Of a DNA stretch of 64,000 nt, positions 4,316-54,718 are shown one piece after another. The position numbers and the translations under genes are program-made. Below the pieces are notes generated by a model. It was not told where the DNA came from, did not search any database, and saw nothing but the letters and a program-made list of their open reading frames with translations. The stretch covers positions 1,145-65,144 of the forward strand of contig JACPDG010000066.1 in the NCBI GenBank assembly GCA_016184125.1. The letters run 5' to 3'. Numbering within the stretch: the stretch's first letter is position 1; each line of letters opens with the position of its first letter. This DNA comes from Candidatus Rokuibacteriota bacterium. GTDB lineage: Bacteria > Methylomirabilota > Methylomirabilia > Rokubacteriales > CSP1-6.

Positions 4316-5710
4316 TCAGCCTTTGATCACGCCCATCGGTCGCATGCGGGCCACGCGCCGCGAGATGCCGAACTGGTGGACGACGTCCACGACGTGCTTC
4401 ACGTCCTTGTAAGCCTCCGGCATCTCCTCGGTCAGCGCGTGACGGCCGGTGGCGCGGGCGACGACCCCGCGCTCGCGCAACTCCTCGTCGATGCGCCGCC
4501 CGCGCGCCGCCTTCACCGCCGCGGTCCGGCTCATCACGCGCCCGGCGCCGTGGCAGGTGCTTCCGAAGGTCTCGCGCATGGCGCGCTCGGTGCCGACGAG
4601 GAGGAACGAGTACCGTCCCATGTCACCCGGCACCAGCACGGGCTGGTCGGGGAACGCGCGCGTGGCGCCCTTGCGATGCACGATCAGCTTCCGGCGCCGG
4701 CCGTTGACCTCGTGCTCCTCTTCCTTCGCGATGTTGTGCGCCACGTCGTACAGGATGCGCACGCTCGACGGTGCCAGCCCGAGCACGCGCGCGAGCACCT
4801 CGCGTGTCCAGTGCGTCATGACCTGGCGGTTGGCGAACGCGAAGTTCGCCGCCGATCGCATCGCCCCGAGATACCGTCGCGCCTCCTCGGAGTCGGCGGG
4901 GGCGCACGCGAGCTGGCGGTCGGGGACGGAGATCCGGTAGCGCTTGAGCGCCGCCTCGCTGACCTTGAGGTAATCCGTGCACACCTGGTGGCCAAACCCG
5001 CGAGAACCCGTGTGGATCAGGACGGTCACCTGCCCCACGTGGACGCCGAGACGCTCGGCCCACGCCGGATCGTAGACCTCGTCGATGACCTGCACCTCGA
5101 GGAAATGGTTGCCCGAGCCGAGCGTGCCGAGCTGCTGGAGTCCGCGCTCCATCGCGTGGTCGGAGACGGCGTCGGGTTGCGCGCCATCGATCCGCCCGCG
5201 GGACTCGATGTGGTCGAGATCCTCGGCGAGCCCGTACCCCTGCGCGACGGCCCAGCCGGCGCCGCCGGTCGCAGCGGCGCTGAGCGCCTTGCGGTCCACG
5301 CGGAGCCCACCCTTCGCGCCAACCCCCGTCGGGATCGCGTCGTAGAGCGCGCCGACGAGCACGGGGAGTCGCGGACGGACATCCGCTTCCTCCAGCGTCG
5401 TCGCGAGCAGCCGCACGCCACAGTTGATGTCGAAGCCGATCGCGCCCGGGCTGACGACGCCGTCCCGCGCGTCCGTCGCGATCACGCCGCCCACCGGCAA
5501 CCCGTAGCCCTGGTGGATGTCCGGCATCGCGAACGCGCCCTTCACGATGCCGGGCAGCGTCGCGCCGTTCGCGAGCTGCTCGAGTGACGCGTCGGTCCTG
5601 ATCTGCGTCATGAGCGCCTCGTCCGCGACGACGAATCCGGGCACCCGCATGCCCGGTTTCGCGTCCATCGGGATGCGCCAGAGATAGGGTCCAACCTGCT
5701 CGACGTTCAC
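4316..5710 (-). CDS. rtcB: RtcB family RNA ligase
   Basis: MPDIHQGYG, GFDINCGVR, GSGNHFLE, HRKGATRA, HGAGR, EEMPEAYKDV. Confidence 0.95.
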   Translation of the reverse strand: MNVEQVGPYLWRIPMDAKPGMRVPGFVVADEALMTQIRTDASLEQLANGATLPGIVKGAFAMPDIHQGYGLPVGGVIATDARDGVVSPGAIGFDINCGVRLLATTLEEADVRPRLPVLVGALYDAIPTGVGAKGGLRVDRKALSAAATGGAGWAVAQGYGLAEDLDHIESRGRIDGAQPDAVSDHAMERGLQQLGTLGSGNHFLEVQVIDEVYDPAWAERLGVHVGQVTVLIHTGSRGFGHQVCTDYLKVSEAALKRYRISVPDRQLACAPADSEEARRYLGAMRSAANFAFANRQVMTHWTREVLARVLGLAPSSVRILYDVAHNIAKEEEHEVNGRRRKLIVHRKGATRAFPDQPVLVPGDMGRYSFLLVGTERAMRETFGSTCHGAGRVMSRTAAVKAARGRRIDEELRERGVVARATGRHALTEEMPEAYKDVKHVVDVVHQFGISRRVARMRPMGVIKG

Positions 5711-5723
5711 GAGACCACCGTTT

Positions 5724-5961
5724 TCATGGGGGGACTATCGAGGCCCCCCATACCCCCCGCGCTCGGAGCGCCCCGGCACAGCCGTGGCGCTCCTCGATCA
5801 CCGGTTTCGTTCACAGGATTCCCCGGGGCGCGTGGAGCGCGGGGTCTGGAGCATTGTCGGCCCTCCTGTCCGCCGAGCGAACTCGAGCAGCGGTCCGGGT
5901 TCCCCCGGGCCGCTTGCGAGCGGTCGGGGGGCTTGGGGGGCCCTTCGAGGCCCCCCATGAA
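5724..5961. repeat. inverted pair of two-hairpin dispersed repeats (copies a +, b -)
   Basis: TCATGGGGGGACTATCGAGGCCCCCC...TTTCGTTCAC on +; TCATGGGGGGCCTCGAAGGGCCCCCC... on -. Confidence 0.85.
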
Positions 5962-5962
5962 T

Positions 5963-6751
5963 TCAGGGCGCGGCGACCGTGGAGGTGCGGCGGTGCACCC
6001 AGACGAACCCGATCACGGCGATCAGCACGCCGATGAGGCTCGCCGCCTGCGGCACCCGCACCGAGCCGACCCAGAAGCTGTCGAGCCTCAGCCCCTCGAT
6101 GAGGAACCGGCCGACCGAGTAGAGCCCGATGTACGTGAAGAACACCGCGCCCGGACGCTTGCGGAAGCGCGGCCGGACGGCCGAAACGAGCATGAGAAAG
6201 ACCGCGAGGTCCCACAGCGACTCGTAGAGGAACGTGGGATGGAAATAGTCGTACTGCGCGTAGCCGGGCGGGCGATGCGACGGCGAGATGTAGAGCTTCC
6301 ACGGCAAGTCCGTCGGACGGCCGAAGGCCTCCTCGTTGAAGAAGTTCCCCCATCGCCCGATCGCCTGCCCGATCGCGAGGCCCGGCGCCGCGACGTCGAG
6401 CCCCCGCAGCACGGGGACGCGCCAGCGCCAGGCGAGCAGCGCGCCGACGAGCGGACCGACGATGAGACCGCCGTGGATCGCGAGACCGCCTTCCCACACC
6501 GCGGGGATCTTCCACGGGTACTCGCCGTAGTAATCCCAGTTGAACGCGACCTCGTACAGGCGCGCACCGACCAGGCCGGCCAGGATCGACCACTGCCCGA
6601 TGCTGATGATGTCGTCGGCCGGCAGCTTTTCCCGGCGCGCCTCGCGGTACGCGAGCCAGAGTCCCACGACGATCGACACCGCCATGAGGATGCCGTACCA
6701 CCGCACCGGCAGCGGGCCGATGTAGAACGCGATCGCGCCGGGCGAGGACAT
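5963..6751 (-). CDS. lgt: prolipoprotein diacylglyceryl transferase
   Basis: VRWYG, GARLY, WEGGLAIHGG, GRWGNFFNEEAFG, HPTFLYES. Confidence 0.95.
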   Translation of the reverse strand: MSSPGAIAFYIGPLPVRWYGILMAVSIVVGLWLAYREARREKLPADDIISIGQWSILAGLVGARLYEVAFNWDYYGEYPWKIPAVWEGGLAIHGGLIVGPLVGALLAWRWRVPVLRGLDVAAPGLAIGQAIGRWGNFFNEEAFGRPTDLPWKLYISPSHRPPGYAQYDYFHPTFLYESLWDLAVFLMLVSAVRPRFRKRPGAVFFTYIGLYSVGRFLIEGLRLDSFWVGSVRVPQAASLIGVLIAVIGFVWVHRRTSTVAAP

Positions 6752-6789
6752 GACTGACGTAAGATATCGTTTCGACTCCGATTCGTCCA

Positions 6790-7431
6790 ATGAAGTCCCG
6801 CATCCGGCGCCTCACCGTCCCGCTCGTCCTGCTCGCCGGGCTCGTCACCCTGGCGGCGTTCGCGCTGCCCGCCGTCGGGCTCTGGCTCGTCGTCGCGGAC
6901 GCGCTCGTCCCGAGCGACGCGATCATCGTCCTGGACGGCCGCACGCCGGCGCGTGAGCTCGGCGCCGCGTCGCTCTACCACGCGCGGTTCGCGCCGGTCG
7001 TCGTCCTCGCACGACCGCGCGACATCGTGGGCGAGATCCCGCGACGTCTCGCGGGCCTCCCCACATCGCAGGAGCACGCCGCGCAGGTGCTGCGCCATGT
7101 CCGCGTTCCCGATCGCGCGATCGTCCGCGCCACGGAGATCGCCGACAACACCGAGCAGGAGCTCTCCATCGACTTCGAGCTCGCGCGCGCCCGCGGCTTC
7201 CGGCGGGTGATCATGGTCACGTCGCCCTCGCACACCCGCCGCGTGAAGACCATCTGGCGCCCCTACGACGACCGCGTGCAGGGCCTCGTCTATCCCACAC
7301 CCTGGGAACGCTTCCCCGCCGAGCGCTGGTGGCAGTCGCGCAAGGCGCTCGAGACGACCGTGCACGAGCTGTTCGGCCTGCTGAACCTCGCGCTCGGCAG
7401 CCCGCTGACGACGTTCGACCGCGACGATTGA
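6790..7431 (+). CDS. YdcF/DUF218 (ElyC/SanA-like) protein
   Basis: N-terminal TM, DAIIVLDG, VIMVTSPSHTRR, HELFG. Confidence 0.8.
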   Translation: MKSRIRRLTVPLVLLAGLVTLAAFALPAVGLWLVVADALVPSDAIIVLDGRTPARELGAASLYHARFAPVVVLARPRDIVGEIPRRLAGLPTSQEHAAQVLRHVRVPDRAIVRATEIADNTEQELSIDFELARARGFRRVIMVTSPSHTRRVKTIWRPYDDRVQGLVYPTPWERFPAERWWQSRKALETTVHELFGLLNLALGSPLTTFDRDD

Positions 7432-7504
7432 GAGTTCGCCGGGGCCTCCGCACCGGCCCCGACACCGTAGCGTTCGCGAGGCTCGGAGTGAACCGAGACC
7501 CGTC

Positions 7505-7990: not shown

Positions 7991-8258
7991 CTTGCTATCC
8001 TCCCCGCGGCGCGCGTCCGCGGCGCCGCCCTCGAAGTCTCCCAGCAAGGCCGGCGCCGCCGAGTCGCTGGTGCTGGTGGAGAGAGCCGAACCCCTATGAC
8101 CCAGGCCCCGTCAGCCTATTAACCACTGTTGGGGCGGGTTTGCGAACGCCCGATCGGGCGTGAGCGGGGCTGATCGGCGCCAACCGGAGACAGTTTTGTC
8201 ACACCCGTCACGCCCTGGTCGTGTGATGGAGTGAGCGATGTTACAGTCAGAGAGCGGA

Positions 8259-8347
8259 GCCGGGGTGGCGGAATTGGCAGACGCAGCGCCCTTAAAAGGC
8301 GCTGGTCCAGGGCGGCCGTGCGGGTTCGATCCCCGCCCCCGGCACCA
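8259..8347 (+). tRNA. tRNA-Leu(TAA)
   Basis: GCCGGGG/CCCCGGC acceptor, anticodon arm GCGCC-CTTAAAA-GGCGC, long variable arm, GTTCGA, encoded CCA. Confidence 0.95.
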
Positions 8348-8529
8348 AGCTCTCCGTGGCAGAACGAAGGCGGGTCGCGCCTCTGGTCAACGGGCGCCGC
8401 GGCGAACCCACACCGCGACGCCGGCGAGAAATCCGAGGCATGGAGGATGCGCAGGACCCGTTTCCCACCAGCACGCGCCGTCGGTCGTCGAACGGCGGCT
8501 TCGCTCCCTGCGACGAGCTGCTTGGCGCG

Positions 8530-8755: not shown

Positions 8756-8769
8756 TCCGCCAGACCCCG

Positions 8770-10866: not shown

Positions 10867-12118
10867 CGCTGAACGCGGGATCGGCCTGCACATCGATCCC
10901 TCCACAGCTCGCGGCACAACCCGTGCCGGCTACTTCCGCTGAGAGTTCGAGCAACAATCGACCGCCGGGCGGGCGATTGTTGGCTCGAACTGAGTTCATC
11001 GTCGTCGGCTTCCCGTCCACGGCGGGCGCCGTCAGCTCGACGCGCTGGTTCCTCGGTTGCACGAAGGGGGTAGGGGCTCAGGGCACAGGCTCGCTGCAGT
11101 TCGTACAGGAAGGGGCCGGAAACAGGGCCGCCTGGCCGCGTCGGGCATTCACCAAAAGGGGACACGCCCTCCCCCTTCACCGCGACGATGTCCGTGAAAT
11201 GAAGAAGAACCGGAGCCAGCGACCGGAGCACCGGCTTGATGACGCCCTCCTGCGCGGTGATCGGATCCGCGCTGATATCGTCCGCTAAGCGGGTTCAAAC
11301 CGGGTGCCATGGGCTCCGCACCGCACGTGCGTCGCCAGTGTAGTTCTGCCAATGCCTCCGAGCCTCAGGCCTCGAGCCACTGCCTAACGCGCGCAGATCA
11401 CGGCGCGCGCAGATCACGGCGGAAGCGGCGCCATTCACGCAAGCGTCGCCGCGATGCGCGAAGCACTTGTGCTCGGGACGCCGGGCGAACAGCTCCGGAC
11501 AGGGCCGGGCCGGGTCGCCGGCTTTACGCCGGCTGCCTCTGCCGGGTTGGGCTACACCAGCGAAACAGCATCTGCGGACGGTCCAAGCCGCGTGGAGAGG
11601 GTGGCCTCGAAAGAAAATACCGCACGCCCTGGAACTTCCGATCGCGCGCGTGTCGGCGTCGCCGCCGGGGAGGTGCTGGCGTTGCTCATCGACGGGCGCA
11701 ACCATCCGCTCGCTACGACCTTCGCGCCCGCGCGCCTCCGCAGCACGGTCGCACGCCGAGAGGCGTCGCCCAAGGCGGACTCCGCGAAAAGCGTCGGCGC
11801 TTGACACTGGTCGCAAGCCATCGGCACCGCGAGAAGCCGGCGACGTCAGCGGCTCGGGGCGCTCGTTGCCGGCCGCCGATCGTCCCCGGCTCGAGAGCGC
11901 CGGCTCCGTCGGCGGCAAGACAACAGTGGAGGGGCCGTACCCACGATGCCGGTGTCGCCCCGGTAGCTCGCTCGCGGGTCCGCTGGCGCTCGCCTTGCCG
12001 TGCAGACGGGCGAGGTGTGGAGATGACGCCATCGTGGAGCACGGCGCGACGGCAACCGAGAACAAGGTGCGGGCGTGGCCGCGTGAACCGTCCTCCGGTA
12101 TGCTCGTGGTCCGGCGTG

Positions 12119-13547
12119 ATGCAGACGAAACAGGACTTGCGCACATTCCTTGAAGCGGCCCCGGACGCGATGGTGGTGGTCGGTGCCGACGGCCGGATCG
12201 TCCTCCTGAACACGCAGGCCGAGCTGATGTTCGGATATCTCGGGAACGAGCTCCTCGACGAGGGCGTCGAATTGTTGGTCCCAACGCGTGACCACGACGA
12301 CCACGTCCGGCACCGCGAGAAGTACTTCGCGAGCCCGGCCGTTCGTCCGATGGGCGGCGGGTTGGAGCTCTACGGCCGTCGCAGGGACGGCTCGGAGTTC
12401 CCGGTCGAGATCAGCCTGAGCCCGCTGGAGCTCGAAGGTGAGACGGTGGCGATGGCCGCGATCCGTGACATCACCGAGCGCAAGCAGGTGGAGCACGCGC
12501 TTCACCACATGAAGGCCATCGTCGAGTCGTCCGACGATGCGATCATCGGCAACACGCTGGACGGCGTCATCACGAGCTGGAACCGCGGCGCAGCGAAGAT
12601 GTACGGCTATTCCGCGGCGGAAGCGATCGGGCAGTCGATCGCGATGCTGGGGCTTGCTGACCGGCCAAACCAGCTGCCGGCCATCCTCGACACTGTGCGG
12701 CGCGGCGAGCACGTGAAGCACCATGAGACCGTGACGGTGCGGAGGGACGGTCATCCCATCGATGTCTCGCTCACCGTCTCGCCGATCCCCGACGCGGCGG
12801 GCAAGGTCGTCGGAGCGGCCACGATGACCGTCGATATCACGGAACGGAAACGGGCCGAGGTCGAGCACGCGAGCCTGATCCGCGAGCAGGCGGCCCGTCA
12901 GGAAGCCGAGGCGGCCGCGGGGCGAGCGAGCCTCCTGGCCGACGCAAGCCGTCTCCTGTCGTCGTCACACGATTACGAGGCGACGCTCGGTCAACTCGGC
13001 AGCATCGTGGTTCCGGCCTTCGCAGACTGGCTCGTCGTATATCTGCCTGACAGAGCTCCACGGCGGCCGGGTCGAGGCACGGAGCGCCGGCGTCGGGCAG
13101 GGCGCCGAGTTCACCGTGCACCTTCCAGGCATCGCCGTGCCGGCGTCGGAGGAACCAGCCGCCGCCGTCTCCGCAACGCCAGCCCATACACGCCGCCGGG
13201 TCCTCGTCGTGGAGGACAACGAGGATGCGCGGGAATCACTCCGCACGGTGCTCGAAGTCGACGGACATGAGGTGGAGGCCGTCGCAGACGGCCATGCAGC
13301 GACCGAGGCGGTCGGCCGCCTCGAGCCAGACATCGTGCTCATCGACATCGGGCTCCCGGACATGGATGGCTACGAGCTCGCGCGCCGGCTCCGCGCAATG
13401 CCGGGCGCCACGCGACGGCGTCTCGTCGCCGTCACCGGCTACGGGCGGCCGGAAGATCGCCAGCGCGCCCTGCAGGCCGGCTTCGACGCTTACTTGATCA
13501 AGCCGGTTGAAGCCGAGCGACTCGCCAGCTTGGTGGCCCGCCTCTAG
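12119..13547 (+). pseudogene. PAS-PAS hybrid sensor kinase with internal deletion; receiver domain intact
   Basis: Two PAS domains and start of a GAF (ADWLVVYL) join out of frame at ~13050 to the end of HATPase_c (LTELHGGRVEARSAGVGQGAEFTVHLP) and a REC domain (VLVVEDN, DIGLPDMDG, KPV). Confidence 0.8.
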
Positions 13548-13561
13548 CACGACTCGCACGG

Positions 13562-14704
13562 TCATGAACGGCGACTGACACTCCCCACCGCCAGACATCC
13601 GTCAGCGCCCAACTCCACCTCCGATCCGAAGTCGCGCGAGATACGATCGAGCGTTCGCCGTAGCCACTCCGCGTCGCCGGGCGACGCCCGATTCAACCGC
13701 ATTCTCCGGATGTGCATCGGCGTCATCCGGAGCGCCGTCAGCCGCCCGGTCGACGCGTCGACGGCCGGGAAGTACATGAGCGCCAGATCGTCCCTGAACT
13801 CCTCGTAGCCGCTGATCCCTTCGTAGTCGTCGATGAAGTTGCCGCAGCCGTAGAGCACGAGCCTGTCCCGGTACACCTCGATCGGGCGCGGATGGTGCGA
13901 GGAGTGCCCGTGAACGATGTCGACGCCGCCGTCGACGAGCCGATGCGCGAAGCGCACGTGGGCCTCAGGCACCGCGTAGCCCCAGTTGCCACCCCAGTGG
14001 ATCGACACGACGACGACGTCACCAGGTCGCTTCACCCGGCGGACGCGGTCGACGACCGCGCTCGCAGTCGCATCCGACACGTCATGCAAGAAGTCGACGC
14101 CGGCGCGCCTGCCGGCCGCGGCCCACGCTGGCGGGATCCCGCTCGTCTCTGTGCCGCAGGAAAACACGACGACCCGGTATCCGCCGGCCAGGTCGACGAT
14201 CGCCGGACGCTGCGCCTCTGGGAGGGTGCGCCCAGCTCCGGCGGTCTTCAGGCCGGCCGTCCCGAGCGTCTCGAGCGTCTCCTCCAGCCCCGGATCGTCG
14301 TAATCGAGGACGTGGTTGTTCGCGAGCGCGCAGACGTCGATCCGCGCCGCCGTGAGGCACGTGACGTTCGCGGGATGCATCCGGTAGTTGATGCCCTTGC
14401 CCTTCCACCAGAAGTCGCTGCGGGTGACGGCGGTCTCCAGGTTGACGATGCGGGCGGCCGGCTGGACGCGCGCGAGCTCGTCCAGCGCGTCGCCCCAGAT
14501 GTATGCCGGCTCGACCGGTCGCGGAACTGGACCGTTCGCTTCTTCCGCCAGCCGGACGTAGTCGCGCGCATCCCGCACGTACGACTCGTGGATCTCCGGC
14601 GGGCTCGGGCACCGCATGATCTGATCGATGCCCCGGCCGGTCATGACGTCCCCGGCCAGGAACACGGTGGTGACGTGATCACCGATCGGAACCGGTGCAA
14701 TCAC
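13562..14704 (-). CDS. CapA/PgsA-family metallophosphatase (poly-gamma-glutamate synthesis-like)
   Basis: GDVMTGRG, NLET, LANNHVLD, SIHWG, GHSSHH, YGCGNF. Confidence 0.85.
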   Translation of the reverse strand: MIAPVPIGDHVTTVFLAGDVMTGRGIDQIMRCPSPPEIHESYVRDARDYVRLAEEANGPVPRPVEPAYIWGDALDELARVQPAARIVNLETAVTRSDFWWKGKGINYRMHPANVTCLTAARIDVCALANNHVLDYDDPGLEETLETLGTAGLKTAGAGRTLPEAQRPAIVDLAGGYRVVVFSCGTETSGIPPAWAAAGRRAGVDFLHDVSDATASAVVDRVRRVKRPGDVVVVSIHWGGNWGYAVPEAHVRFAHRLVDGGVDIVHGHSSHHPRPIEVYRDRLVLYGCGNFIDDYEGISGYEEFRDDLALMYFPAVDASTGRLTALRMTPMHIRRMRLNRASPGDAEWLRRTLDRISRDFGSEVELGADGCLAVGSVSRRS

Positions 14705-15078
14705 TCCGAGGTCAGGCACGATCCGGTGGCATCGTTTCTCTTCTCGTCTTCTCTGGACGTGACGCTGCGGCGCCACGGCTGGTGCAGCGAGCGGCATGCC
14801 AGGGGCGACCTCCTCGCGTGCCGAGCATCGAGAGGCCCTGCAACGCGGTGTCGATGTTGCACTGACCAGCTCGGTTCAGCAACAATCGACCGCCAGGGCG
14901 GTCGATCGTTGCGCGAACTCTCAGTCCCCCCAGCTGGCATCGATCGCGCAGGCTTGTCTTTCTCCGGAGCTTGCGCGTGGAAGCTGTTCGCCTCCGTTGG
15001 CGAGCGCGATCCCCTCGGTTCCGGGCCGCCGCACGATCTCCCCGGGTGAACCCTCTTCAGGAGGCAGGAGGTCGGACC

Positions 15079-17756: not shown

Positions 17757-17832
17757 TGGAGGCGGCGGGCGGATTCGAACCGCCGCATAACGGATTTGCA
17801 GTCCGCTCCCTTAACCACTTGGGTACGCCGCC
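17757..17832 (-). tRNA. tRNA-Cys(GCA)
   Basis: GGCGGCG acceptor, GCGGA-CTGCAAA-TCCGT anticodon arm, GTTCGAATCC, CCA. Confidence 0.95.
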
Positions 17833-17860
17833 GCCGAAGCGGAAGACCGATGCGAGGAAC

Positions 17861-17935
<75 letters not shown>

Positions 17936-20947: not shown

Positions 20948-21095
20948 GCGCCTCCCTGGCCTTCGATCCTGCGGGGTTGATTTGGCCGTGACCGGTCGAG
21001 GCGGCGAGGCGCGCACGGGCTCCGCTGAGCGCCGAAGAGAAGTGTCGCCATCCGGATCCTCCCTCGAAGACCACGGCGTTTTAGCATGCGCGCCC

Positions 21096-21250
21096 GGGCC
21101 GGTCTCCTGGCTCTCGGATCGTCCTACTCCCCGCGCCTTCCCGGCCTCGCGGCCAGTGGCTCTTCGCGGGTTTCGTCCCCGATCACAGTGACGGGGTCGC
21201 GGCGGATTCGCACCGCCTTCCCTGGGCCCTCATGGGCACCGCGGGCGCGC
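21096..21250 (-). ncRNA. cobalamin riboswitch
   Basis: AGGGAA-GGCGGTGCGAATCCGCC-GCGACCCCGTCACTGTGA...GCCACTG...GGGAAGGC...GAGCCAGGAGACCGGCC (B12 box). Confidence 0.92.
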
Positions 21251-21344
21251 TTCACCACGGGGGAAGCTAGCAGACGCGACGACTGATCGCAACCGGCGAC
21301 GCCCGCGCTTGCCCGAAGTCGAACCGGAAACCTGCCGAAGCTCC

Positions 21345-24796: not shown

Positions 24797-24826
24797 ATTA
24801 TCGAGGCGCCAAAACGACCTTGTCAA
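24797..24826 (-). promoter_or_regulatory. internal sigma70-like promoter for pgsA inside the comB 3' end
   Basis: TTGACA-N18-GATAAT. Confidence 0.45.
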
Positions 24827-25619
24827 CGTCTGGCAGGTACACGGGCACCACGGCCGTCGTGTCGAGGGCGAGGCACGCCGCCACGTCCAGCCCGTGCCCG
24901 GCCGCGTCGAGGTGCCGGGCCCATCGCGAGTCGACCGCGAGCCGTCCGACGTCTGCGCCATACCGGCGAGCCGTCGTGACCGCCTCGCGCGCCGCCGCCG
25001 TCGGCGTGGTACCGGGCAGACGCTCCACGAGCAGCCCCGCGCACACGGTGTCCTCGAGCGAGGACCGGCCGCGCTCGCCCGCGCAGACGATCACCACGTC
25101 TCGCGCCTGCGCCTCCGCCCAGGCCGACGCCGCGGACGCGTTGACGAGCGCCGCGATACCGACCGCGGCAGCCCGGCGCGCGGCGAGCAGCGCCCGCGTC
25201 CCGTTCGACGTCGTGAAGACCACCGTTCGCCCGCGCACGCGCTCGGAGGCGAAGGCGACCGGCGAGTTGCCGAGGTCGAACCCGGGGACCATCTCACCGC
25301 CCCGCTCGCCGGCCACGATGGCGCCGCCGTCGTCGAATGCGCCGGCGCGCAGGCGCGCGTCCGAGGGGCCGGCCACAGGGACGACCGCGGCCGCGCCGTG
25401 CGCGAGGGCGGTGATGATCGTCGTGCTGGCCCGCAGCACGTCGACGATCAGCACGGCCGCACCCCCCAGCGCCTCCGGGTCGACGGCGTCGGCGGTCGGG
25501 ATGACCTCGACCCGGACGCTCCGTGTGAACGAGTCGAGTCCCCGAGGAGCGGCCCGGGTTCCCCGGGCCGCTTCCGAGCCGCCAATGGGGGGTTTGGGGG
25601 GCCCTTCGAGGCCCCCCAT
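24798..25619 (-). CDS. comB: 2-phosphosulfolactate phosphatase; N-terminus apparently repeat-derived
   Basis: IVDVLRASTTI, GERGG...FDLGNSP, TTSNGT, SLED..CAG; nearest upstream ATG lies in repeat copy d. Confidence 0.85.
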   Translation of the reverse strand: MGGLEGPPKPPIGGSEAARGTRAAPRGLDSFTRSVRVEVIPTADAVDPEALGGAAVLIVDVLRASTTIITALAHGAAAVVPVAGPSDARLRAGAFDDGGAIVAGERGGEMVPGFDLGNSPVAFASERVRGRTVVFTTSNGTRALLAARRAAAVGIAALVNASAASAWAEAQARDVVIVCAGERGRSSLEDTVCAGLLVERLPGTTPTAAAREAVTTARRYGADVGRLAVDSRWARHLDAAGHGLDVAACLALDTTAVVPVYLPDVDKVVLAPR

Positions 25620-25724
25620 GAACTCAGAGGGTGTGACCAAATACCGTTCCCGAGCCGCGGCCCGGGTCCCCCGGGCCGCGTGCGAGTGCGGGGGGTTTGG
25701 GGGGCTTCGATAGTCCCCCCATGA
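25524..25724 (-). repeat. tandem two-hairpin repeats (copies d, e)
   Basis: TCATGGGGGGACTATCGAAGCCCCCC... followed by TCATGGGGGGCCTCGAAGGGCCCCCC...TCGTTCAC. Confidence 0.85.
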
Positions 25725-25726
25725 TC

Positions 25727-26926
25727 TCAGGCGTCACGCAACGCGCGGATCTTGAGGCGCAGCCCTTGGAGGCTGATGAACCCCTCGGCGTCCCGCTGCC
25801 GGTAGACCTCGTCGCGCTCGAACGTGACGAAGTCGGTCCGGTAGAGCGAGCGAGGCGACCGGCGGCCGAGCACGGTCACGTTGCCCTTGTAGAGCTTGAG
25901 CCGGACGGTCCCGGTGACGTCCTTCTGGCACTCGTCGATGAGCGTCTGGAGCGCCTGCCGCTCCGGCGAGAACCAGAACCCGTAGTAGATCATCTCCGCG
26001 TACCGCGGGACCAGCGAGTCGCGCAGGTGCAGCACCTCGCGGTCGAGCGTCAGGGACTCGAGCGCACGATGCGCCACGTGCAGGATCGTGCCCCCGGGGG
26101 TCTCGTACACGCCGCGGCTCTTCATGCCGACGAAGCGGTTCTCCACCATGTCGACACGGCCGATCCCGTGCTCGCCGCCGATACGGTTCAGGCGCGCCAG
26201 CAGGTCCGCGGGACCGAGCGTGACGCCGTCGACAGCGACCGGATTGCCCTGCTCGAAGTCGACGGTGATCTCAACCGGCACGTCGGGTGCCGCCTCCGGC
26301 GACTGCGTGCGGAGGAACATCTTCGCCGGCGGCTCCGCCCACGGGTCCTCCAGGATGCCGCCCTCGTACGAGATGTGGAAGAGGTTGGTGTCCATGGAGT
26401 ACGGGCGCTCGGCCGTCACGGGCACGGGGATGTCGTGCCGCTTCGCGAACTCGATCATGTCGGTCCGCGAGCGCAGGTCCCACTCGCGCCACGGCGCGAT
26501 GACCTTGAGATGCGGCGCGAGCGCGGCGTACGTGAGCTCGAACCGGACCTGGTCGTTGCCCTTCCCGGTCGCGCCGTGCGAGACCGCATCGGCCCCTTCC
26601 TCGAGCGCGATGTCCACCTGCGCCTTGGCGATGAGCGGCCGCGCGATCGAGGTGCCGAGCAGGTAGCCGCCCTCGTAGACGGCGTTGGCGCGGAGCATCG
26701 GGAAGATGTAGTCGCGGACGAACTCCTCCCGGAGGTCCACGATGTGCACGCTCTTCGCGCCCGTCCTGAGCGCCTTGTCGCGGATGGGGATGAGCTCCTC
26801 GCCCTGGCCGAGGTCGGCGCAGTACGCCACGATCTCGCACCGGTAGCGCTCGATGAGCCAGCGCAGGATGACGGAGGTATCGAGGCCTCCGGAGTAGGCC
26901 AGCACGACCTTCGTGTACTCAGGCAT
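25727..26926 (-). CDS. argG: argininosuccinate synthase
   Basis: [33 protein letters not shown]. Confidence 0.97.
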
Positions 26927-27845
26927 CGTCGGCTCCTCCTCCGAGCAGTTGCAGGATGACGGCCTTCTGAGCATGGAGCCGATTCTCCGCCTGATCGAGC
27001 ACGATCGACTGCGGGCCGTCCAGCACGGCGTCGGTGACCTCCTCGCCGCGGTGCGCGGGCAGGCAGTGCATCACGAGCGCGTTGGGCCTGGCGAAGCCCA
27101 CGATCGTTTCGTTCACCTGGTAGCGGCCGAAGGCCTCGAGCCGCCGTTCGCGCTCCGCCTCCTGGCCCATCGAGATCCACACGTCGGTGTACAGCACGTC
27201 CGCCCCCGTGGCCGCCTCGCGCGGGTCTTCCGTGACCAGCAGCGACGGGCCGAGGCGGCTTACCTCGGCCTGCACCGCCGGATCCGGCTCGAAGCCGGGC
27301 GGGCACGCCACGCGGACCTTCGCGCCGAGCATGGCCCCGAGCAGGATGACCGAGTGGCAGACGTTGTTGCCGTCGCCGATCCACGCGACCGTCGTGCGCG
27401 TGAAGTCGACGCCCCGCTCCCACAGCGTGAAGAAGTCGGCGAGCGCCTGGCACGGGTGCTCGAAGTCCGACAGCGCGTTGATCACCGGGATCGTCGCCAC
27501 GCGTGCCATCGTCTCGACGGTGGCGTGCGCGTGCACGCGCGCCGCGATGCCGTCCACCCAGCGCGACAGGTTCCTGGCGACGTCGGGCACCGATTCCCGT
27601 GTGCCGAGGCCGATCTCGCTGCCCTGCAGGTAGACCGCGCGCCCGCCGAGCTGGACGATCCCGACCTCGAAGGTCACGCGGGTGCGCAGGGACGGCTTCT
27701 CGAAGATGAGCGCGAGCGTGCGGGCGGCGAGCGGCACGGTGCGCTTGCCGGCCTTCCAGCCCTGCTTGAGATCGGCCGCGAGCCGGAAGAGCCCGAGCGC
27801 GGACTCCCGCGTGAGATCGGCGGTGGTGATGAAGTGGCGCATCAC
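26919..27845 (-). CDS. argF: ornithine carbamoyltransferase
   Basis: [30 protein letters not shown]. Confidence 0.95.
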
Positions 27846-29128
27846 GCGAGCCGGGGGTGCGCGGACGCACCCGTGGGGTGCGCGGACGCACCCGTGGGGT
27901 GCGCGGACGCACCCGTGGGGTGCGCGGACGCACCCGTGGGGTGCGCGGACGCACCCGCGCCGAGCGACTTCTCGATGATCCCGAGCGCCCGGTCGCAGTC
28001 CCGCGGCTCCACGATGAGCGGCGGGGCGAGCCTCAGCACGCGCTCCCCGGCCGAGAGCACGAGCAGGCCGGCATCACGGCACGCATCGATGACGGGCGCC
28101 GCGGGACCGCTCAGCTCCGCGCCGATCAGCATCACCGTCACGACGCCGGTGCGGTTCTGGATCCGGGCCAGGCCGTCCACGAGGTACTGGCCCATGCGCG
28201 CCGCGCGTTCGGGGAGCTTCTCCTCGATGACGGTCTGGAGCACGGTGAGCGCGACCGACGTGACGAACGGGGTCCCGCCGAACGTCGAGCCGTGCGTGCC
28301 CGCCGTCAGCACGCTCGCGACCTCCTCGCGGCACAGCATGGCGCCGATGGGCACGCCGTTCGCGAGCGCCTTGGCGAGCGTCATGATGTCCGGGGCGGTC
28401 CCGGCGTGCTCGTACGCCCACAGTCGCCCCGTCCGGCCCATCCCGGTCTGGATCTCGTCGAGGATCAGGAGGATGCCGGCCGCGTCACAGAGCTTCCGGA
28501 GCCCGGGCAGGTATCCGTCGTCCGGCACGTTCACGCCGCCCTCACCCTGCACCGGCTCCACGAGCACGGCGGCGGTGTGGGCGTCGATCGCGCGCTCGAC
28601 CGCGCGCAGGTCGTTGTACGGCACGTGCTTGAAGCCCGGGACGAGCGGCTCGAAGCCGTGCTGGTACTTCTCCTGCCCTGTCGCCGTGACCGTCGCGAGC
28701 GTCCGGCCGTGGAAGGAGTTGCGCGTGGCGATGATCTCGTAGCGGTCGGAGGCGAAGCGCTCGCGGGAGTACTTGCGCGCGAGCTTGATCGCCGCCTCGT
28801 TCGCCTCGGCGCCCGAGTTCGCGAAGAACACGCGGTCGGCGAACGAGTGATCGCAGAGCAGCTTCGCGAGGTGGATCTGCGGCGCCGAGTGGTAGAGGTT
28901 CGACACGTGCAGCAGCGTCGCGGCGGCCTCGCGGATCGCGCCCGTCACCCGCGGATGCGAGTGCCCGAGCGCGGTGACCGCGATGCCGGACCCGAAGTCG
29001 AGGTACTCGCGCCCGTCCGTGTCCCACACGCGCATCCCGTCCCCCCGGACGAGACAGACCGGCGCGCGCGCGCCGTAATTCGGGGTGTGGTACCGCGCGG
29101 ACCACTCGAGCAGCGTCTTCGTGTCCAT
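27842..29128 (-). CDS. argD: acetylornithine aminotransferase with C-terminal (GASAHPT)x5
   Basis: NSGAEANE, SFHGRT, EPVQGEGG, DEIQTG.GRTG, AKALANG, HGSTFGG. Confidence 0.93.
   Translation of the reverse strand: MDTKTLLEWSARYHTPNYGARAPVCLVRGDGMRVWDTDGREYLDFGSGIAVTALGHSHPRVTGAIREAAATLLHVSNLYHSAPQIHLAKLLCDHSFADRVFFANSGAEANEAAIKLARKYSRERFASDRYEIIATRNSFHGRTLATVTATGQEKYQHGFEPLVPGFKHVPYNDLRAVERAIDAHTAAVLVEPVQGEGGVNVPDDGYLPGLRKLCDAAGILLILDEIQTGMGRTGRLWAYEHAGTAPDIMTLAKALANGVPIGAMLCREEVASVLTAGTHGSTFGGTPFVTSVALTVLQTVIEEKLPERAARMGQYLVDGLARIQNRTGVVTVMLIGAELSGPAAPVIDACRDAGLLVLSAGERVLRLAPPLIVEPRDCDRALGIIEKSLGAGASAHPTGASAHPTGASAHPTGASAHPTGASAHPRLA
27854..27958. repeat. 5 x 21-bp tandem hairpin GGGGTGCGCGGACGCACCCGT inside argD
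   Basis: Direct reading; core GGGTGCG-CGGA-CGCACCC is a 7-bp stem. Confidence 0.95.
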
Positions 29129-29146
29129 CACTCTCCTCCGATCGGA

Positions 29147-29225
29147 GTGGGGGGCCCCGACATGGCCCCCCACACCCCCCCAACGCTCGGAAACGCCCCG
29201 GGAAACCCGGGGCGCTCCTCGGGTC
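29147..29225 (+). repeat. two-hairpin dispersed repeat (copy f)
   Basis: GGGGGGCCCCGACATGGCCCCCCACACCCCCCCAACGCTCGGAAACGCCCCGGGAAACCCGGGGCG. Confidence 0.85.
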
Positions 29226-29353
29226 CCGCTCATCGTGGCAAACGGGGAGTTATCAGGGAAATCAATTGTCGTGATGCCAACCATCAGCCGAGATCGCGCT
29301 CGTGCACCAAGGAGGTCACGCATGGAGCGGCCAGGGAGATCGGCCGGGTGGCG

Positions 29354-29467
29354 CCGGGGTGGCCCCCGTCCGCCGCGCGGGAGTGGGACCCCCTCGTACC
29401 GTCGCAGTGCGAAGCACTGCGTTCGGTCGAGTGGGTGACGGAGCGCGGCGGACGGGGGCCACCCCGG
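29354..29467. repeat. perfect 25-bp inverted repeat enclosing a GAA-loop hairpin
   Basis: CCGGGGTGGCCCCCGTCCGCCGCGC (29354-29378) / reverse complement (29443-29467); inner CGCAGTGC-GAA-GCACTGCG. Confidence 0.85.
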
Positions 29468-29520
29468 TGACAGGACCCGGCCGCCTCGCGTGTCGTCGAT
29501 ACATCGCTAACGCCCGCCGG

Positions 29521-31766
<2,246 letters not shown>

Positions 31767-36489: not shown

Positions 36490-36560
36490 GGGGCTCGAGC
36501 ATAGCCGCCGGCTGGCGCCGCGGGAAAGACCGCGAACGGATACACCGAGACTATTGGTGT

Positions 36561-36726
36561 GGGGGGCCCCGACATGGCCCCCCACGCCCCCCAACGCTCG
36601 CAACCGGCCCGGGGAACCCGGGCCGGTGCTCGAGTTCTCGCGGCGGCGTTCTGGGGGCCCCGACATGGCCCCCCACGCCCCCCAACGCTCGCAACCGGCC
36701 CGGGGAACCCGGGCCGGTGCTCGAGT
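36561..36726 (+). repeat. two identical 74-bp copies of the two-hairpin repeat (copies g, h)
   Basis: 36562-36635 = 36653-36726, 17-nt spacer. Confidence 0.9.
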
Positions 36727-36739
36727 CACGGGCGAGATC

Positions 36740-43008: not shown

Positions 43009-43012
43009 CGGG

Positions 43013-46663: not shown

Positions 46664-46948
46664 TCATGGGGGGACTATCGAAGCCCCCCATACCCCCCGC
46701 GCGCGGAGCGCCCCGGCCCAGCCGTGGCGCTCCTCGACCACCCGCTTCCTTCATGGGGGGACCATCGCTGCCCCCAAACCCCCCGCGCTCGCGCCCCGGG
46801 ATACCCAGGGATACCAGGGGCGCGGCTCGAGCCCCCAACCCCCGCGCCATCGAGGGCCGTCCCGGGGTTCACGGGTGCGTCCGCGCACCCCCCGGGACGG
46901 GCTCCGAGCGCTGGGGGGTGTGGGGGGCCATGTCGGGGCCCCCCATGA
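46664..46948. repeat. cluster of three two-hairpin repeats (j +, k +, l -)
   Basis: j ends ...CCTTCAT, which is the start of k; l carries the 18-bp hairpin at 46873-46890. Confidence 0.85.
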
Positions 46949-46950
46949 TC

Positions 46951-48979: not shown

Positions 48980-48987
48980 GGCGCCTC

Positions 48988-49896: not shown

Positions 49897-49906
49897 GGGG
49901 GTGTCC

Positions 49907-50341: not shown

Positions 50342-50355
50342 GGCGCGCAGACGGG

Positions 50356-51345: not shown

Positions 51346-51346
51346 C

Positions 51347-52153
51347 TCAGCCACTCCTTTGCTCGAAATGAGCCTCGATCGCCCGGACGAGCGCCGGGAT
51401 CGTGTACTCGACCGGCATCACGTGACTCGTCAGACCGTACTCCGCGGCGGTCGCGGCCGTGATCGGCCCGATCGCGGCGATCGTCACGCCGGCGAGCCAC
51501 GCACGCCGCTCGTCCTCCGTGAAGAGCTCGGCGAAGTGCCGCGCCGTGGACGAGCTCGTGAGCGTCACGACGTCGACCCGCCGCGCCGCCACGGCCTCGC
51601 GCACCCGCGCCGCGGCGTCCTCCACCCGGCGCGTGACGTACGCGGCCACTTCGCGGACGACGGCGCCCAGGGCCTCCAGCTGGCGCACGAGGACGTCGCG
51701 CGTGCGCGCCGCCCGCGGCAGCAGCACATGATCGCCGGGCGCGAGCTCGGCGCGCAGGCCGTCGGCGAGCGACTCGGCGCGGTACTCCTCGGGCACGAGG
51801 GCCACGGGCACGTCGTGCTCGCGCAGCGCCCCGGCCGTCGCCGGGCCGATGGCGGCGACGCGTCGCGCGGCGATCGCGCTCCACGGGATGCCGAGCGCCT
51901 CGAGGCGCCGGCCGACCATCGCGACGCCGTTGACGCTCGTGAACACGACCCACCGGAAGCGCTCGATCTCGCCGAGCGCGGCATCGAGCGGCTCCCAGGA
52001 TGGCGGCGGCTCGATCGCGATGGTCGGCGCCTCCAGCACGTCCGCACCGGCGGCCTCGAGCAGCGACCGGAGCGACGCAGCCTGGCTCGCCGCGCGCGTG
52101 ATCGCGACGGTGCGCCCGGCGAGGGGTCCGCTCCGCGTGGTCGCGGCGCTCAT
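51347..52153 (-). CDS. hemD: uroporphyrinogen-III synthase
   Basis: [27 protein letters not shown]. Confidence 0.9.
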
Positions 52154-53067
52154 CGTCCTGCCTCGGGCCTGAGCGCGACGACCGAGGCCGCGCCGCGTTC
52201 CAGCAGCGTGTCGGCGAGCGTGCGGCCCAGCTCGGTCGCCCGCGCGGGATCCCCGCTCGTGCTCGCGCGCAGCACCTGCCGGCCGTCCTCGCTCGCCACG
52301 ACACCGGTGACGTGGAGCGTGCCGCGGTCGAGGCGCGCGTACGCGCCCATCGGCGTCACGCACGAGGCGCCGAGGCGCGCGAGATACGCGCGCTCCGCGG
52401 ACGCGCAGCTGCGGCTCGTCGGATCGTCCAGCCGTCCCAGCCACCCGAGCGTCTCCGCGTCGTCGTCGCGTGCCTCGATCCCGATGATCCCCTGGCCGAC
52501 GGCGGGCACGAAGACCTCGGGATCGAGCGGCTCGGCGTGCTCGAGCGCGAGCCCGAGCCGGCGGATCCCGGCGGCCGCCAGCACGATCGCGTCCCAGCCC
52601 TCGGAATCGAGCTTCCTGAGCCGCGTGTCGACGTTGCCCCGCACCGGCTCGATGCGGAGATCCGGGCGCACCGCCAGCAGCATCGCGCGGCGGCGAGGGC
52701 TCGAGGTCCCGACGACCGCACCCTGTCCGAGCGCCGCGACACCGCCCCCCTGCCGGGTGACGAGCACGTCGCGGGGATCCTCGCGCTCGGGATACGCCGC
52801 CATCGTGAGGCCTGCCGGCACCTCCGCCGGCAAGTCCTTGAGGCTGTGCACCGCGATGTCGATCTCCTTGCGGAGGAGCGCCTGCTCGATGTCGCGCACG
52901 AAGAGCCCCTTGCCGCCGATGTCGGCCAGCCGCTTCTCCACGAGGCGATCGCCCTCCGTCCGCATCGGCACGAGCTCCACCGTCGCGCCGAGGTCGCGCA
53001 GCCGTGTCGCCATCGCGTTCGCCTGCGCGAGCGCCAGCGGGCTCGAGCGCGTCCCGAGACGGATCAC
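52150..53067 (-). CDS. hemC: hydroxymethylbilane synthase
   Basis: GTRSSPLALAQ, GGKGLF, VHSLKD, GTSS.RR, RGNVDTR, LGASC. Confidence 0.96.
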   Translation of the reverse strand: MIRLGTRSSPLALAQANAMATRLRDLGATVELVPMRTEGDRLVEKRLADIGGKGLFVRDIEQALLRKEIDIAVHSLKDLPAEVPAGLTMAAYPEREDPRDVLVTRQGGGVAALGQGAVVGTSSPRRRAMLLAVRPDLRIEPVRGNVDTRLRKLDSEGWDAIVLAAAGIRRLGLALEHAEPLDPEVFVPAVGQGIIGIEARDDDAETLGWLGRLDDPTSRSCASAERAYLARLGASCVTPMGAYARLDRGTLHVTGVVASEDGRQVLRASTSGDPARATELGRTLADTLLERGAASVVALRPEAGR

Positions 53068-54335
53068 GGCTTCCGTCCCAGCCCGAAGAGCTCGTGCACG
53101 AGCTCGGTCCACGAACGGCCGGCGCCCGCGCGCGACGACTCGCGCAGCTTCGTGATCGGCGCGTGCAGGATCTTGTTCACGATGGCCGCCGACAGGGCCT
53201 CGATCGCCTCCCGGGTCTCCGGGGAGCTGTCGCCGAGCCGCCCGAGCGTCTTCTCGACCTCACTCCTGCGGATGGCCTCGAGCCGCTCGCGGAGCGACAC
53301 GATCGTCGGCACGACCTCCGCATCGCGCAGGCGCGCCGAGAACTTCGCGACCTCGCGGTCGACGAGGCTCTCCGCGCGCTGCGCCTCGCGCAGGCGCTCG
53401 CGCAGGTTGGCGTCGACCACCTGGCGCAGGTCGTCGATGTCGTAGCAGTACACGTCGTCGAGCCGGTTCACGTCCGCCTCGACGTCCCGCGGCACCGCGA
53501 TGTCGATGAAGAACAGGGGCCGGCCGCGCCGGTCGCGCATCACGCGCTGGACCATGTCGACGCGGACGAGCGGCTCGCGCGCGCCGGTTGACGTGATCAC
53601 GATGTCCACCGAGCCCATCGCCGCCTCCAGCTCGTCGAACGAGACGGCGGTCCCGCTCAGCGCGCGCGCCATGTCCTGGGCGCGCGCCCACGTCCGGTTG
53701 ACGACGTAGATCGGGAACGCGCCCTGCTCGACGAGGTGGCGCGCGGCCAGTGTCCCCATCTTGCCGGCGCCGACGAGCAGCACCGACTTGCCCTGGAGCC
53801 CCTCGAAGATCTTCTTGGCCAGCTCGACGGCGGCGAACGAGATCGACACCGCGTGGCGCGCGATCTCGGTCTCGGTCCGTACCTTCTTCGCGACGGCGAA
53901 GGCCTGCGTGAAGAGCCGGTGGAGCATCGGGCCGACCGCGGCGGACGCCTGCGCCAGCGCGAAGGCGTCCTTCACCTGTCCGCCGATCTGCGGCTCGCCC
54001 ACGACCATCGAGTCGAGGCTCGACGCCACGCGGAACGCGTGCCGGACCGCGCTGTCCTCCTCGTAGGTGTAGAGGTAGGGCTCGATCTTCGCCGGCTCGA
54101 GCCCGCGATACCGGCAGAGCTGCCGGAACGCCAGCGTCCGCGCCTCCGCGATGACGTCCCCCACGCCGTAGACCTCGACGCGGTTGCACGTCGACAGGAT
54201 CACGACCTCCTCGAGCGGCCCGGCCGTCTGGAGATCGCTCAGGACTTCCCGGAGCTTGTCTTCCTCGACCGCGAGCTGCTCCCGGACGTCGACGGGCGCC
54301 GTCTTGTGCGAGAGCCCCGACACGAACAGGGTCAC
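53064..54335 (-). CDS. hemA: glutamyl-tRNA reductase
   Basis: LSHKTAPV, STCNRVE, SMVVGEPQI, GAGKMG, DIAVPRD. Confidence 0.96.
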   Translation of the reverse strand: MTLFVSGLSHKTAPVDVREQLAVEEDKLREVLSDLQTAGPLEEVVILSTCNRVEVYGVGDVIAEARTLAFRQLCRYRGLEPAKIEPYLYTYEEDSAVRHAFRVASSLDSMVVGEPQIGGQVKDAFALAQASAAVGPMLHRLFTQAFAVAKKVRTETEIARHAVSISFAAVELAKKIFEGLQGKSVLLVGAGKMGTLAARHLVEQGAFPIYVVNRTWARAQDMARALSGTAVSFDELEAAMGSVDIVITSTGAREPLVRVDMVQRVMRDRRGRPLFFIDIAVPRDVEADVNRLDDVYCYDIDDLRQVVDANLRERLREAQRAESLVDREVAKFSARLRDAEVVPTIVSLRERLEAIRRSEVEKTLGRLGDSSPETREAIEALSAAIVNKILHAPITKLRESSRAGAGRSWTELVHELFGLGRKP

Positions 54336-54349
54336 GCGCACACCCGGCG

Positions 54350-54718
54350 ACCGGGCGCAATCACGACGCGTCCGCCGTCCCCGCCGGGTCGAGTGTCGAG
54401 CGATCCGACTTCATGGGGGGCCTCGAAGGGCCCCCCAAACCCCCCGAACGCTCGCACACGCCCCGGCGGGTGCGCGGACGCACCCGCGGAACCCGGGGCG
54501 CGGCTCGACCATCGGATTCGTTCACGGGCTCCGTGAGCGACGTGGCGCGACGTCGATCGGCCCGGCGCGGTCACGAGCCGCCGACTGTTCCCGCCGGGTC
54601 GAGTGTCGAGCGATCCGAGGCCCGAGGGAGGCGCCGACCGGAGCGTACTTCGAGTACGTGAGGATCGGCGACGACCGAGAACGAAGGAGCGCGAAGGCAA
54701 TCGGCCCGGCGCCGTCAC
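54350..54718. repeat. composite insert: duplicated 28-mer, three GTGA-CGC..GG motifs and repeat copy m with a nested 18-bp hairpin
   Basis: CCGCCGGGTCGAGTGTCGAGCGATCCGA at 54381 and 54591; copy m at 54411-54525. Confidence 0.8.

Follow-up and report, generated by a model that had tools for sequence, protein, structure and literature searches.

A recently amplified hairpin repeat beside TGA stop codons in a Rokubacteria genome and the reading frames that bridge neighbouring genes through it

Mycobacterial interspersed repetitive units (MIRUs), GC-rich units of 40-100+ bp that lie in operon spacers and sometimes occur in tandem, have been proposed to minimise polarity via translational coupling (PMC3184786, PMC12548453; here and below, as stated in the parts of these papers drawn on). 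GC-rich repeat units, some of them in tandem, also occupy operon spacers in a 64,000-nt stretch of DNA from an uncultured Candidatus Rokuibacteriota bacterium of groundwater (contig JACPDG010000066.1), hereafter the window; all window coordinates are positions in this stretch. An earlier note on the window had described four cases in which a stop-free open reading frame (ORF) through such a repeat bridges one gene to the next, and had suggested that the element either targets TGA-NN-TCA at stop codons or is retained only when it relays ribosomes to the downstream gene. Analysis of the whole source genome (G000) showed that copies of the element lie immediately 3' of genes, whichever way the copies point, and that the adjoining stop is nearly always TGA. 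The repeat is a new family of a known general kind, resembling miniature inverted-repeat transposable elements (MITEs), repetitive extragenic palindromes (REPs) and MIRUs. It is probably a non-autonomous, recently amplified hairpin repeat of this kind, with the bridging ORFs as incidental by-products.

The likeness to MIRUs extends to sites that are filled in one species and empty in another, to ends bearing short direct repeats and to ORFs that touch the flanking genes (PMC3184786, PMC12548453); filled and empty sites in related genomes were found here. However, the MIRU ORF overlaps the neighbouring start with a −4 spacing, whereas the head of the present repeat lies 4 nt past a stop; hundreds of copies are present, compared with 40-50 MIRUs; and the two are without sequence similarity, as judged by inspection only. 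REP, BIME and REPIN elements are likewise short GC-rich extragenic palindromes that form modular mosaics, can point either way and are concentrated past the 3' ends of genes and in convergent spacers. The Rokubacteria unit differs in being longer than REPs (90-140 nt), with two unlike hairpins and directional ends, and in that G000 holds no RAYT (Y1 transposase) gene flanked by repeats, only a truncated Y1 fragment. Bacterial MITEs such as Correia, RUP, Nezha and ERIC are also small, non-coding and present in high copy number, with lineage-specific bursts, stable RNA folds and frequent fusion to host ORFs at either the 5' or the 3' end (PMC3184786), but in the present family terminal inverted repeats are not evident, a target duplication is weakly supported and no parent insertion sequence was found. 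In Neisseria, an ATG borne by the REP2 repeat becomes the start of a host gene (PMC3184786), as at comB in the window; REP2, however, also supplies a promoter and a ribosome-binding site and lies upstream of genes, whereas the Rokubacteria element carries an ATG without a Shine-Dalgarno motif and is located after stops. A literature search found nothing on repeats in Rokubacteria, and nothing linking bacterial MITEs, stop codons and translational coupling.

The repeat and its placement at gene ends

The source genome comprises 4.09 Mb in 121 contigs, at 70.7% GC and 92.8% completeness. Its gene map came from a purpose-written, simple codon-bias ORF picker rather than a standard gene caller. 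The picker called 3725 genes (87% coding), with TGA as the stop codon in 2604 of 3672 (71%), TAG in 867 and TAA in 201. It recovered the Pfam-confirmed genes inside the window, where the domains LGT, RtcB, 2-ph_phosp (ComB), GlutR (HemA), Cytochrom_C_asm (CcsA) and Aminotran_3 (HemL) were identified. The repeat unit is 90-140 nt long and about 75% GC, with two hairpins. It reads TCATGGGGGG-loop-CCCCCC-ANN-CCCCCC, followed by a second stem of 11-13 GC base pairs (CGAGCGCCCCGG...CCGGGGCGCTCG), one or more copies of an optional 21-nt module (GGGGTGCGCGGACGCACCCGT) and a tail, CGATTCGTTCACGGGCTC. RNA folding predicted two GC hairpins on either strand (z = −2.5 to −3.5), and the inverted repeats of the element are internal. 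Copy-to-copy homology begins at the T of TCATG, placing the TC before the ATG in the element and the TGA-NN in the flank.

With a head pattern of G5-6/N7-14/C5-6/N1-6/C5, 584 heads were counted in G000, of which 410 start with ATG and 121 with GTG. A narrower, exact head pattern matched 414 times in G000, compared with 0-6 times in each of 60 other genomes of the order and 2-3 times in each of two same-genus genomes; relatives have related stems but different heads. The amplification is therefore a species-level burst in the G000 lineage. The commonest head had no match in JGI metagenome contigs, nor did the argG end when used as a metagenome query, which thus yielded no strain-level empty sites.

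The distance from a stop codon to the ATG of the head peaks at 4 nt (57 of the 243 heads that face a stop), and 169 of the 243 lie between −1 and 12 nt of the stop. Heads within 12 nt after a stop account for 169 of 441, whereas uniform insertion over element-free spacer would give 6.7%. Homology among copies starts at or before the stop, at a median of −7.5 nt for sense and +2 nt for antisense copies. Convergent and co-directional spacers hold 1.20 and 1.07 copies per kb, divergent spacers 0.36. The 52 heads that directly follow a stop at the 4-nt spacing comprise 47 after TGA, three after TAA and two after TAG, and all 15 reversed tails that directly follow a stop do so after TGA, as TGA then GAGCCCGTGAACGAA. 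The same preference is seen in a second, unrelated palindromic repeat (CTGAGAG-TTCGAGCAACAATCGACCGCC...GGCGGTCGATTGTTGCTCGAA-CTGAG; about 33 copies in G000, with window copies at 10950-10991 and 14878-14919), 23 copies of which directly follow a stop, always TGA, as TGA then GAGTTCGAGCAACAATCGACCGCC.... Overall, 85 of the 90 stops abutted by a head, a reversed tail or the second family are TGA, compared with 71% genome-wide. Both the TGA-adjacent placement and the repeat itself are far beyond chance.

The flank preceding the head reads GAC-YGA, with C before TGA in 69% of cases compared with 36% in ordinary stop contexts, and CTGA(G) occurs on both sides in both repeat families. In 80 solo copies, the two flanks of a copy match each other more often than after permutation (z = 3.6); the flank pairs are TGA/TGA in eight, CGA/CGA in six and TGA/CGA in three, i.e., 14 concordant and three discordant. 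The element may thus insert at a short (C)TGA(G)-like site, keeping or duplicating it, and insertion there would spare the upstream gene, which could account for the survival of copies at stop codons. The register of heads relative to the upstream reading frame is uniform (76/84/75 in total; 50/78/65 for stop-facing and 26/6/10 for read-through heads), so the 4-nt arrangement represents the third of copies whose flanking TGA happens to fall in the frame of the gene. Since the element starts with TCATG, landing 2 nt past a TGA creates TGA-NNTC-ATG automatically. That spacing occurs four times in the window, as the earlier note had counted, and never in 100 shuffles (TGANNTCATGGGGG, 4 against 0.00); genome-wide, 112 of 148 sites matching TGANNTCATG are repeat heads. 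Of the proposed target TGA-NN-TCA, the TGA is borne out by the 85 of 90 stops, by stops that pre-exist in relatives and by a spacing independent of the downstream gene; the NN-TCA is not, since TCA belongs to the element.

Several structural variants were also observed. The second palindromic repeat often adjoins a head or tail of the main family. On contig C10 of G000 (about 370-560, minus strand), three short units without the long tail lie head to tail at 77-nt spacing, resembling a variable-number tandem repeat array. An insert of about 70 nt (CTAAGAAACTGGTCAC...CATGTGA) splits the second stem of at least two copies, one of the sites being at about 3700 on contig C2. In the window, five tandem 21-nt internal-module units (27854-27966) form an in-frame 3' stretch of a 429-amino-acid (aa) gene (27842-29131, minus strand); they encode (TGASAHP) x5 right before the gene's stop, which still overlaps the next start by 4 nt.

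Bridging reading frames in the window and junctions in relatives

The repeat copies and associated ORFs in the window are as follows.

5707..5958, minus strand: 83-aa bridge ORF between lgt and rtcB, crossing two inverted copies (translation checked)
5724..5813, plus strand: repeat copy antisense to the operon, head 16 nt upstream of the rtcB GTG (5710)
5872..5960, minus strand: repeat copy after lgt, sense to the operon; head TCATGGGGGG 2 nt past the lgt TGA, ATG at 5958, two GC hairpins; 3' limit approximate
24798..25619, minus strand: comB ORF, with a 34-aa repeat-encoded N-terminal stretch; the native start reads GTC
25518..25621, minus strand: repeat copy 2 after argG; ATG 25619 in the comB frame, without the usual terminal TGA
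25624..25724, minus strand: repeat copy 1 after argG; ATG 25722 and TGA 25626-25624 in phase, giving a 32-aa ORF
29147..29224, plus strand: antisense copy with a GTG-type head, followed by GGAGGAGA and the next gene's start
36559..36730, plus strand: two GTG-type copies in tandem at a distance of 91 nt, with 100% identity across 74 nt
46664..46840, plus strand: two tandem antisense copies with heads at 46666 and 46753, one TCA common to both at their junction
46869..46948, minus strand: repeat head after hemL with ATG 46946 and a 25-aa ORF; the copy continues further 3'
54332..54718, minus strand: 128-aa ORF from the ccsA GTGA to the hemA GTGA (GTG 54718 to TGA 54334-54332)
54402..54531, plus strand: antisense copy in the ccsA-hemA spacer, head ATG 54413, containing a 21-nt GGGTGCGCGGACGCACCC module
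56160..56280, minus strand: copy at a convergent gene end, head TTGGGGGG right after TGACTGA; 3' limit approximate
62335..62472, plus strand: antisense copy with two 21-nt modules

The ORF listing and translation confirmed the coordinates of all four bridging cases. The lgt TGA (5965-5963) is followed by attc and ATG 5958, and the TGA of the resulting ORF overlaps the GTG of rtcB (4316-5710) as GTGA at 5707-5710. The argG TGA (25729-25727) is followed by gatc and ATG 25722, which opens the 32-aa frame MGGLSKPPKPP...GHTL; the TGA of this ORF (25626-25624) is followed by gttc and ATG 25619, in frame with comB. The hemL TGA is likewise followed by gatc and ATG 46946, and the TGA of the 25-aa ORF overlaps a GTG at 46872. 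The 128-aa ORF between ccsA and hemA lies within a 404-aa alternative open frame that starts at 55546. On both strands, real genes are crossed by non-coding open frames of 343-420 aa (5726-6757, plus; 5811-6944, minus; 25697-26959, plus; 54332-55546, minus), such that an open frame at 70% GC means little.

At comB, the start region reads GTG/ATG-CGC-(ATC/GTC)-GAC-GTC in 11 relatives but GTC-CGG-GTC-GAG-GTC in G000. Upstream and in frame, canonical starts are limited to the element's ATG at 25619 and a TTG at 25640, 21 nt further up, and the Pfam match starts at residue 47 of the lengthened ComB, at profile position 8. Judged from the sequence, comB, if expressed, would start within the repeat and carry about 34 extra residues. 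Bridges would thus be co-opted occasionally, comB being apparently one real co-option of an element ATG. At the other end of genes, 42 heads are located 40-320 nt within the 3' part of a called gene, with the ATG frame used in 26, and the about 40 genes whose ORFs read into a repeat copy in this way would acquire a C-terminal extension. Among read-through genes with a co-directional neighbour, 10 of 31 end in a −4 overlap, compared with 573 of 2860 genome-wide, a difference that is not taken as evidence. Fusion of repeat ORFs with host gene ends is a known phenomenon (PMC3184786).

Ancestral junctions were reconstructed from syntenic contigs of same-genus and same-family genomes for six co-directional junctions and one convergent junction; an eighth (62192-62831) had no counterpart. 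The argG-comB comparison covered 11 relatives, one row of which (L008) comes from an unpublished genome, G011. The argG-comB spacer runs 1-4 nt from a TGA or TAG stop to a GTG start in five of the 11 and measures 14-106 nt in the other six. The ccsA-hemA junction is a TGATG overlap in G010 and a 28-nt spacer in G002, and holds an independent, different antisense repeat in G001. The lgt-rtcB spacer is 18-59 nt in G010 and G001 and 220 nt in G012. The junction at 29131-29521 is short in G002 and G012 (7-9 nt, with GGAGA) and measures 112 nt in G001 and 202 nt in G010. Between hemL and the cytochrome gene, a spacer of about 110 nt with GGAGG is conserved in four of four relatives, indicating that in the hemL case there was never any coupling for a bridge to maintain. 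In lgt, hemL, ccsA and the gene at 29521, the stop occupies the same aligned position as in relatives, showing that it is older than the insertion, whereas the argG stop in relatives lies 1-4 codons further on. Reads from four DNA runs of one study were uninformative for these sites: contigs break at repeats, and with joint sides of only 20-30 nt, no trustworthy empty-site allele or duplication could be read.

Other repeats occur at some of the same junctions in relatives. At the hemL and ccsA junctions, G001, of the same genus, has independent repeats with a different type of head. In G010, which belongs to another genus, the orthologue of the 29131-29521 junction (locus L025) is filled by three units of an unlike tandem repeat, GAGCCGCAGGACCTCGCGGGGC...GAAATCAGGAGGGC, each about 65 nt long. 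The same junctions have been hit repeatedly.

Tests of ribosome relay through the repeat

MIRUs are generally described as oriented with the host operon. Such a match is not found for the Rokubacteria repeat, which has 162 sense and 158 antisense heads in co-directional junctions (binomial p = 0.87), i.e., half of its copies are antisense. The 4-nt spacing is as frequent at convergent ends, where no downstream gene could profit from it (17 of 81), as in co-directional junctions (40 of 162; p = 0.63). A start codon (ATG, GTG or TTG) is kept in 154 of 162 sense, 149 of 158 antisense, 78 of 81 convergent and 39 of 40 divergent heads. From the head, 85-100% of frames are open for at least 90 nt, whichever of the three frames and six contexts is considered, because the GC content of the element is about 75%; in sense copies the ATG frame is, if anything, the shortest (median 207 nt, compared with 244 and 254). 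The caveat in the earlier note, that open frames are common at 70% GC and that its cases were noticed post hoc, was therefore well founded.

Proximity of stops and starts proved equally uninformative. Whichever of the three frames is followed, the stop ending it has a start codon within −4 to +4 nt in 54-70% of cases in every context, and GTGA-, ATGA- or TGATG-type overlaps are found at 43-62% of stops near elements in any frame or context. Since a G before TGA already makes GTG, and G precedes TGA in about 37% of element-free TGA stops, GTGA overlaps are to be expected everywhere. A start near the stop was found for 101 of 154 sense co-directional and 44 of 77 convergent copies (p = 0.25). 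The distal end of the repeat is unphased, in a further difference from MIRUs: among 89 copies with a recognisable tail followed by TGA, the phase of the terminal TGA relative to the ATG is 0, 1 or 2 in 34, 18 and 37, and unit lengths vary by single nucleotides (95, 96, 97, 98). A conserved mini-ORF with ATG and TGA in phase is thereby ruled out. Two-sided coupling of the MIRU type is not a property of the family, with the 4-nt spacing upstream in 57 of 243 heads and an in-phase terminal TGA in 34 of 89.

A relay chain was defined as a series of ORFs, each starting within −4 to +4 nt of the preceding stop and ending in the frame of the downstream gene. As a virtual-frame control, the head was left in place and the chain was started either at the real ATG or at a point shifted downstream by one or two bases (90 junctions). 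From the real ATG frame the next gene was reached in 50 of 90 junctions, and from the virtual frames in 43 and 41 (50/90 compared with 84/180; p = 0.20). Shine-Dalgarno sequences precede 95 of 261 downstream genes with an element (36%) and 377 of 1002 without one (38%), a weak test since start positions are uncertain. Selection for ribosome relay is not supported by these data. The claim that the element is retained only when relaying ribosomes fails for lack of an orientation bias or of conservation of start codon or phase, and because the real frame does no better than virtual ones. The TCATG start, the 75% GC content and the frequent G before TGA together make the bridges by-products.

Origin of the repeat, alternative readings and significance

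No enzyme that mobilises the repeat was identified. A RAYT/IS200 partner was rejected, as the genome holds one truncated IS200-type C-terminal Y1 fragment at a contig end, with no adjoining repeat. Y1 genes were found in eight of 41 genomes of the family, and none was found in G001. Harbinger-type DDE_Tnp_4 and TnpB were considered as partners, and none was found in G000. Two DDE_Tnp_1 genes are present, with inverted ends unrelated to the repeat, and no parent insertion sequence with element-like ends was found in G000. On contig C31 (about 13050-14400), a repeat head is interrupted by a DDE_Tnp_1 insertion sequence that has inverted ends of its own (GGGGCATAAGCACTAACCTA...). Insertion sequences are also known to land in REP-type repeats (PMC3184786).

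Several observations weigh against the interpretation of the repeat as a mobile element with incidental bridges. No transposase partner was identified in G000, although at 92.8% completeness, and with repeats often unassembled, absence is not shown. Clear terminal inverted repeats are lacking, the ends TCATGGGGGG... and ...TTCACGGGCTC being alike as direct repeats, and the target-site duplication signal is weak. A model giving each junction an equal chance predicts 39% of copies at most 12 nt from a stop, near the observed value, such that the departure from the 6.7% of the uniform model reflects short spacers being hit far more than their length predicts. Stop positions are exact but start positions approximate, and every junction count inherits the limits of the ORF picker. 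Relay chains were found in 107 of 261 element-bearing co-directional junctions, compared with 59.8 +/- 5.2 in dinucleotide shuffles and 65 with the spacer reverse-complemented, and in 61 of 130 sense-only junctions, compared with 25.5 +/- 3.0 and 23. They are somewhat commoner in sense than in antisense-only junctions (43 of 125, compared with 34.3 +/- 4.0 and 41; p = 0.056), and the ATG frame overruns into the next gene less than the other frames do (9/90 compared with 44/180, p = 0.005). A path for re-initiating ribosomes thus exists in about half of the sense junctions, and a mechanical relay may function in about half of the sense copies. However, shuffling destroys the ATG beside the stop, and the excess of chains over shuffles therefore reflects this built-in ATG, independent of the downstream gene.

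The excess of chains in sense junctions also speaks for a ribosome relay, in which operon copies would persist because their ATG-started short ORF re-initiates ribosomes 4 nt past the stop and hands them on, making the element non-polar or expression-tuning. Only 4 nt separate the stop from the ATG, which lies at the base of a 10-bp GC hairpin that a terminating ribosome would have melted; copies entered junctions that are tight in some relatives, such as argG-comB and ccsA-hemA; comB depends on the element ATG; and MIRUs offer a precedent (PMC12548453, PMC3184786). This proposal is nevertheless very unlikely to be correct, given that antisense copies are as common and are retained though their chains barely exceed shuffles, that the 4-nt spacing is equally frequent without a downstream gene, that neither phase nor start codon is conserved, that virtual frames nearly equal the real one, that stop/start proximity is at base rate, and that hemL lacks a downstream coupling partner. 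Harder still to credit is that the element supplies the stop, its insertion into the last codons replacing the native gene end with a TGA of its own. While the GAC-YGA flank is more conserved than ordinary stops, some upstream genes end at a TGA within a reversed tail (GTGAACGAA), and the 42 heads inside gene 3' ends would fit such a process, the aligned lgt, hemL and ccsA stops of relatives, with that of argG only 1-4 codons further on, argue against it, as does homology among copies that mostly starts at TCATG rather than at TGA.

A host-serving role of the RNA structure, with the hairpins kept in either orientation as REP/BIME-like stabilisers of mRNA 3' ends, attenuators or termination modulators, is somewhat less improbable but still unlikely. 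It would suit the two very stable GC hairpins on both strands, the enrichment after genes and depletion in divergent, promoter-bearing spacers, and the position of the hairpin foot about 6 nt from the stop, a distance covered by a ribosome that is terminating there. In E. coli, Liang, Rudd and Deutscher (2015) reportedly found a gene to be translated less when a REP lies no more than 15 nt from its stop codon. The species-specific burst, near-absent in same-genus relatives with the same operons, argues against a regulatory need that is conserved, and the junctions of relatives differ in the repeat they hold or hold none. The hairpins also lack the following T-run of an intrinsic terminator, with AAGCCCCCC or CGA... 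after them at the four sites read (a reading of the sequence; no terminator scan was run), and the repeat copies match no Rfam family at the gathering threshold. A role for the RNA structure and a selfish element are not mutually exclusive.

The Rfam matches in the window, at 21080-21259 (minus strand), 17760-17935 (minus strand) and 8259-8344 (plus strand), are a cobalamin riboswitch (92.7 bits) and three tRNA genes only. A perfect 62-nt direct repeat of lower GC content, unrelated to the main family, lies at 63858-63919 and 63939-64000, with 81-nt spacing.

The preferred interpretation, a mobile hairpin repeat with incidental bridges, has consequences for how such genomes are annotated. In high-GC metagenome-assembled genomes of this kind, MGGLxxPPxPP-type "proteins" by the hundred, and the extended ends of many genes, would be repeat read-through rather than genes, and gene starts like that of comB may be missed. 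Methodologically, stop-free frames and GTGA overlaps at 70% GC are near-uninformative unless compared across frames and contexts. A bolder and rather doubtful proposal is that two unrelated repeats follow one rule, entering at (C)TGA(G) and keeping TGA on both sides, with the stop codon as a safe landing site, and that re-initiation at the ATG of the main family makes sense insertions such as those at argG-comB and ccsA-hemA largely non-polar. If true, this would represent an independent MIRU-like strategy in an uncultured phylum, and one that has already given a start codon to comB. The repeat provides a clean case of a species-specific burst of small repeats landing at the TGA stop region in a phylum without cultured members. 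Its insertions also show that an operon whose genes lie 1-4 nt apart can accommodate 100-400 nt of very stable hairpin RNA in the gap.

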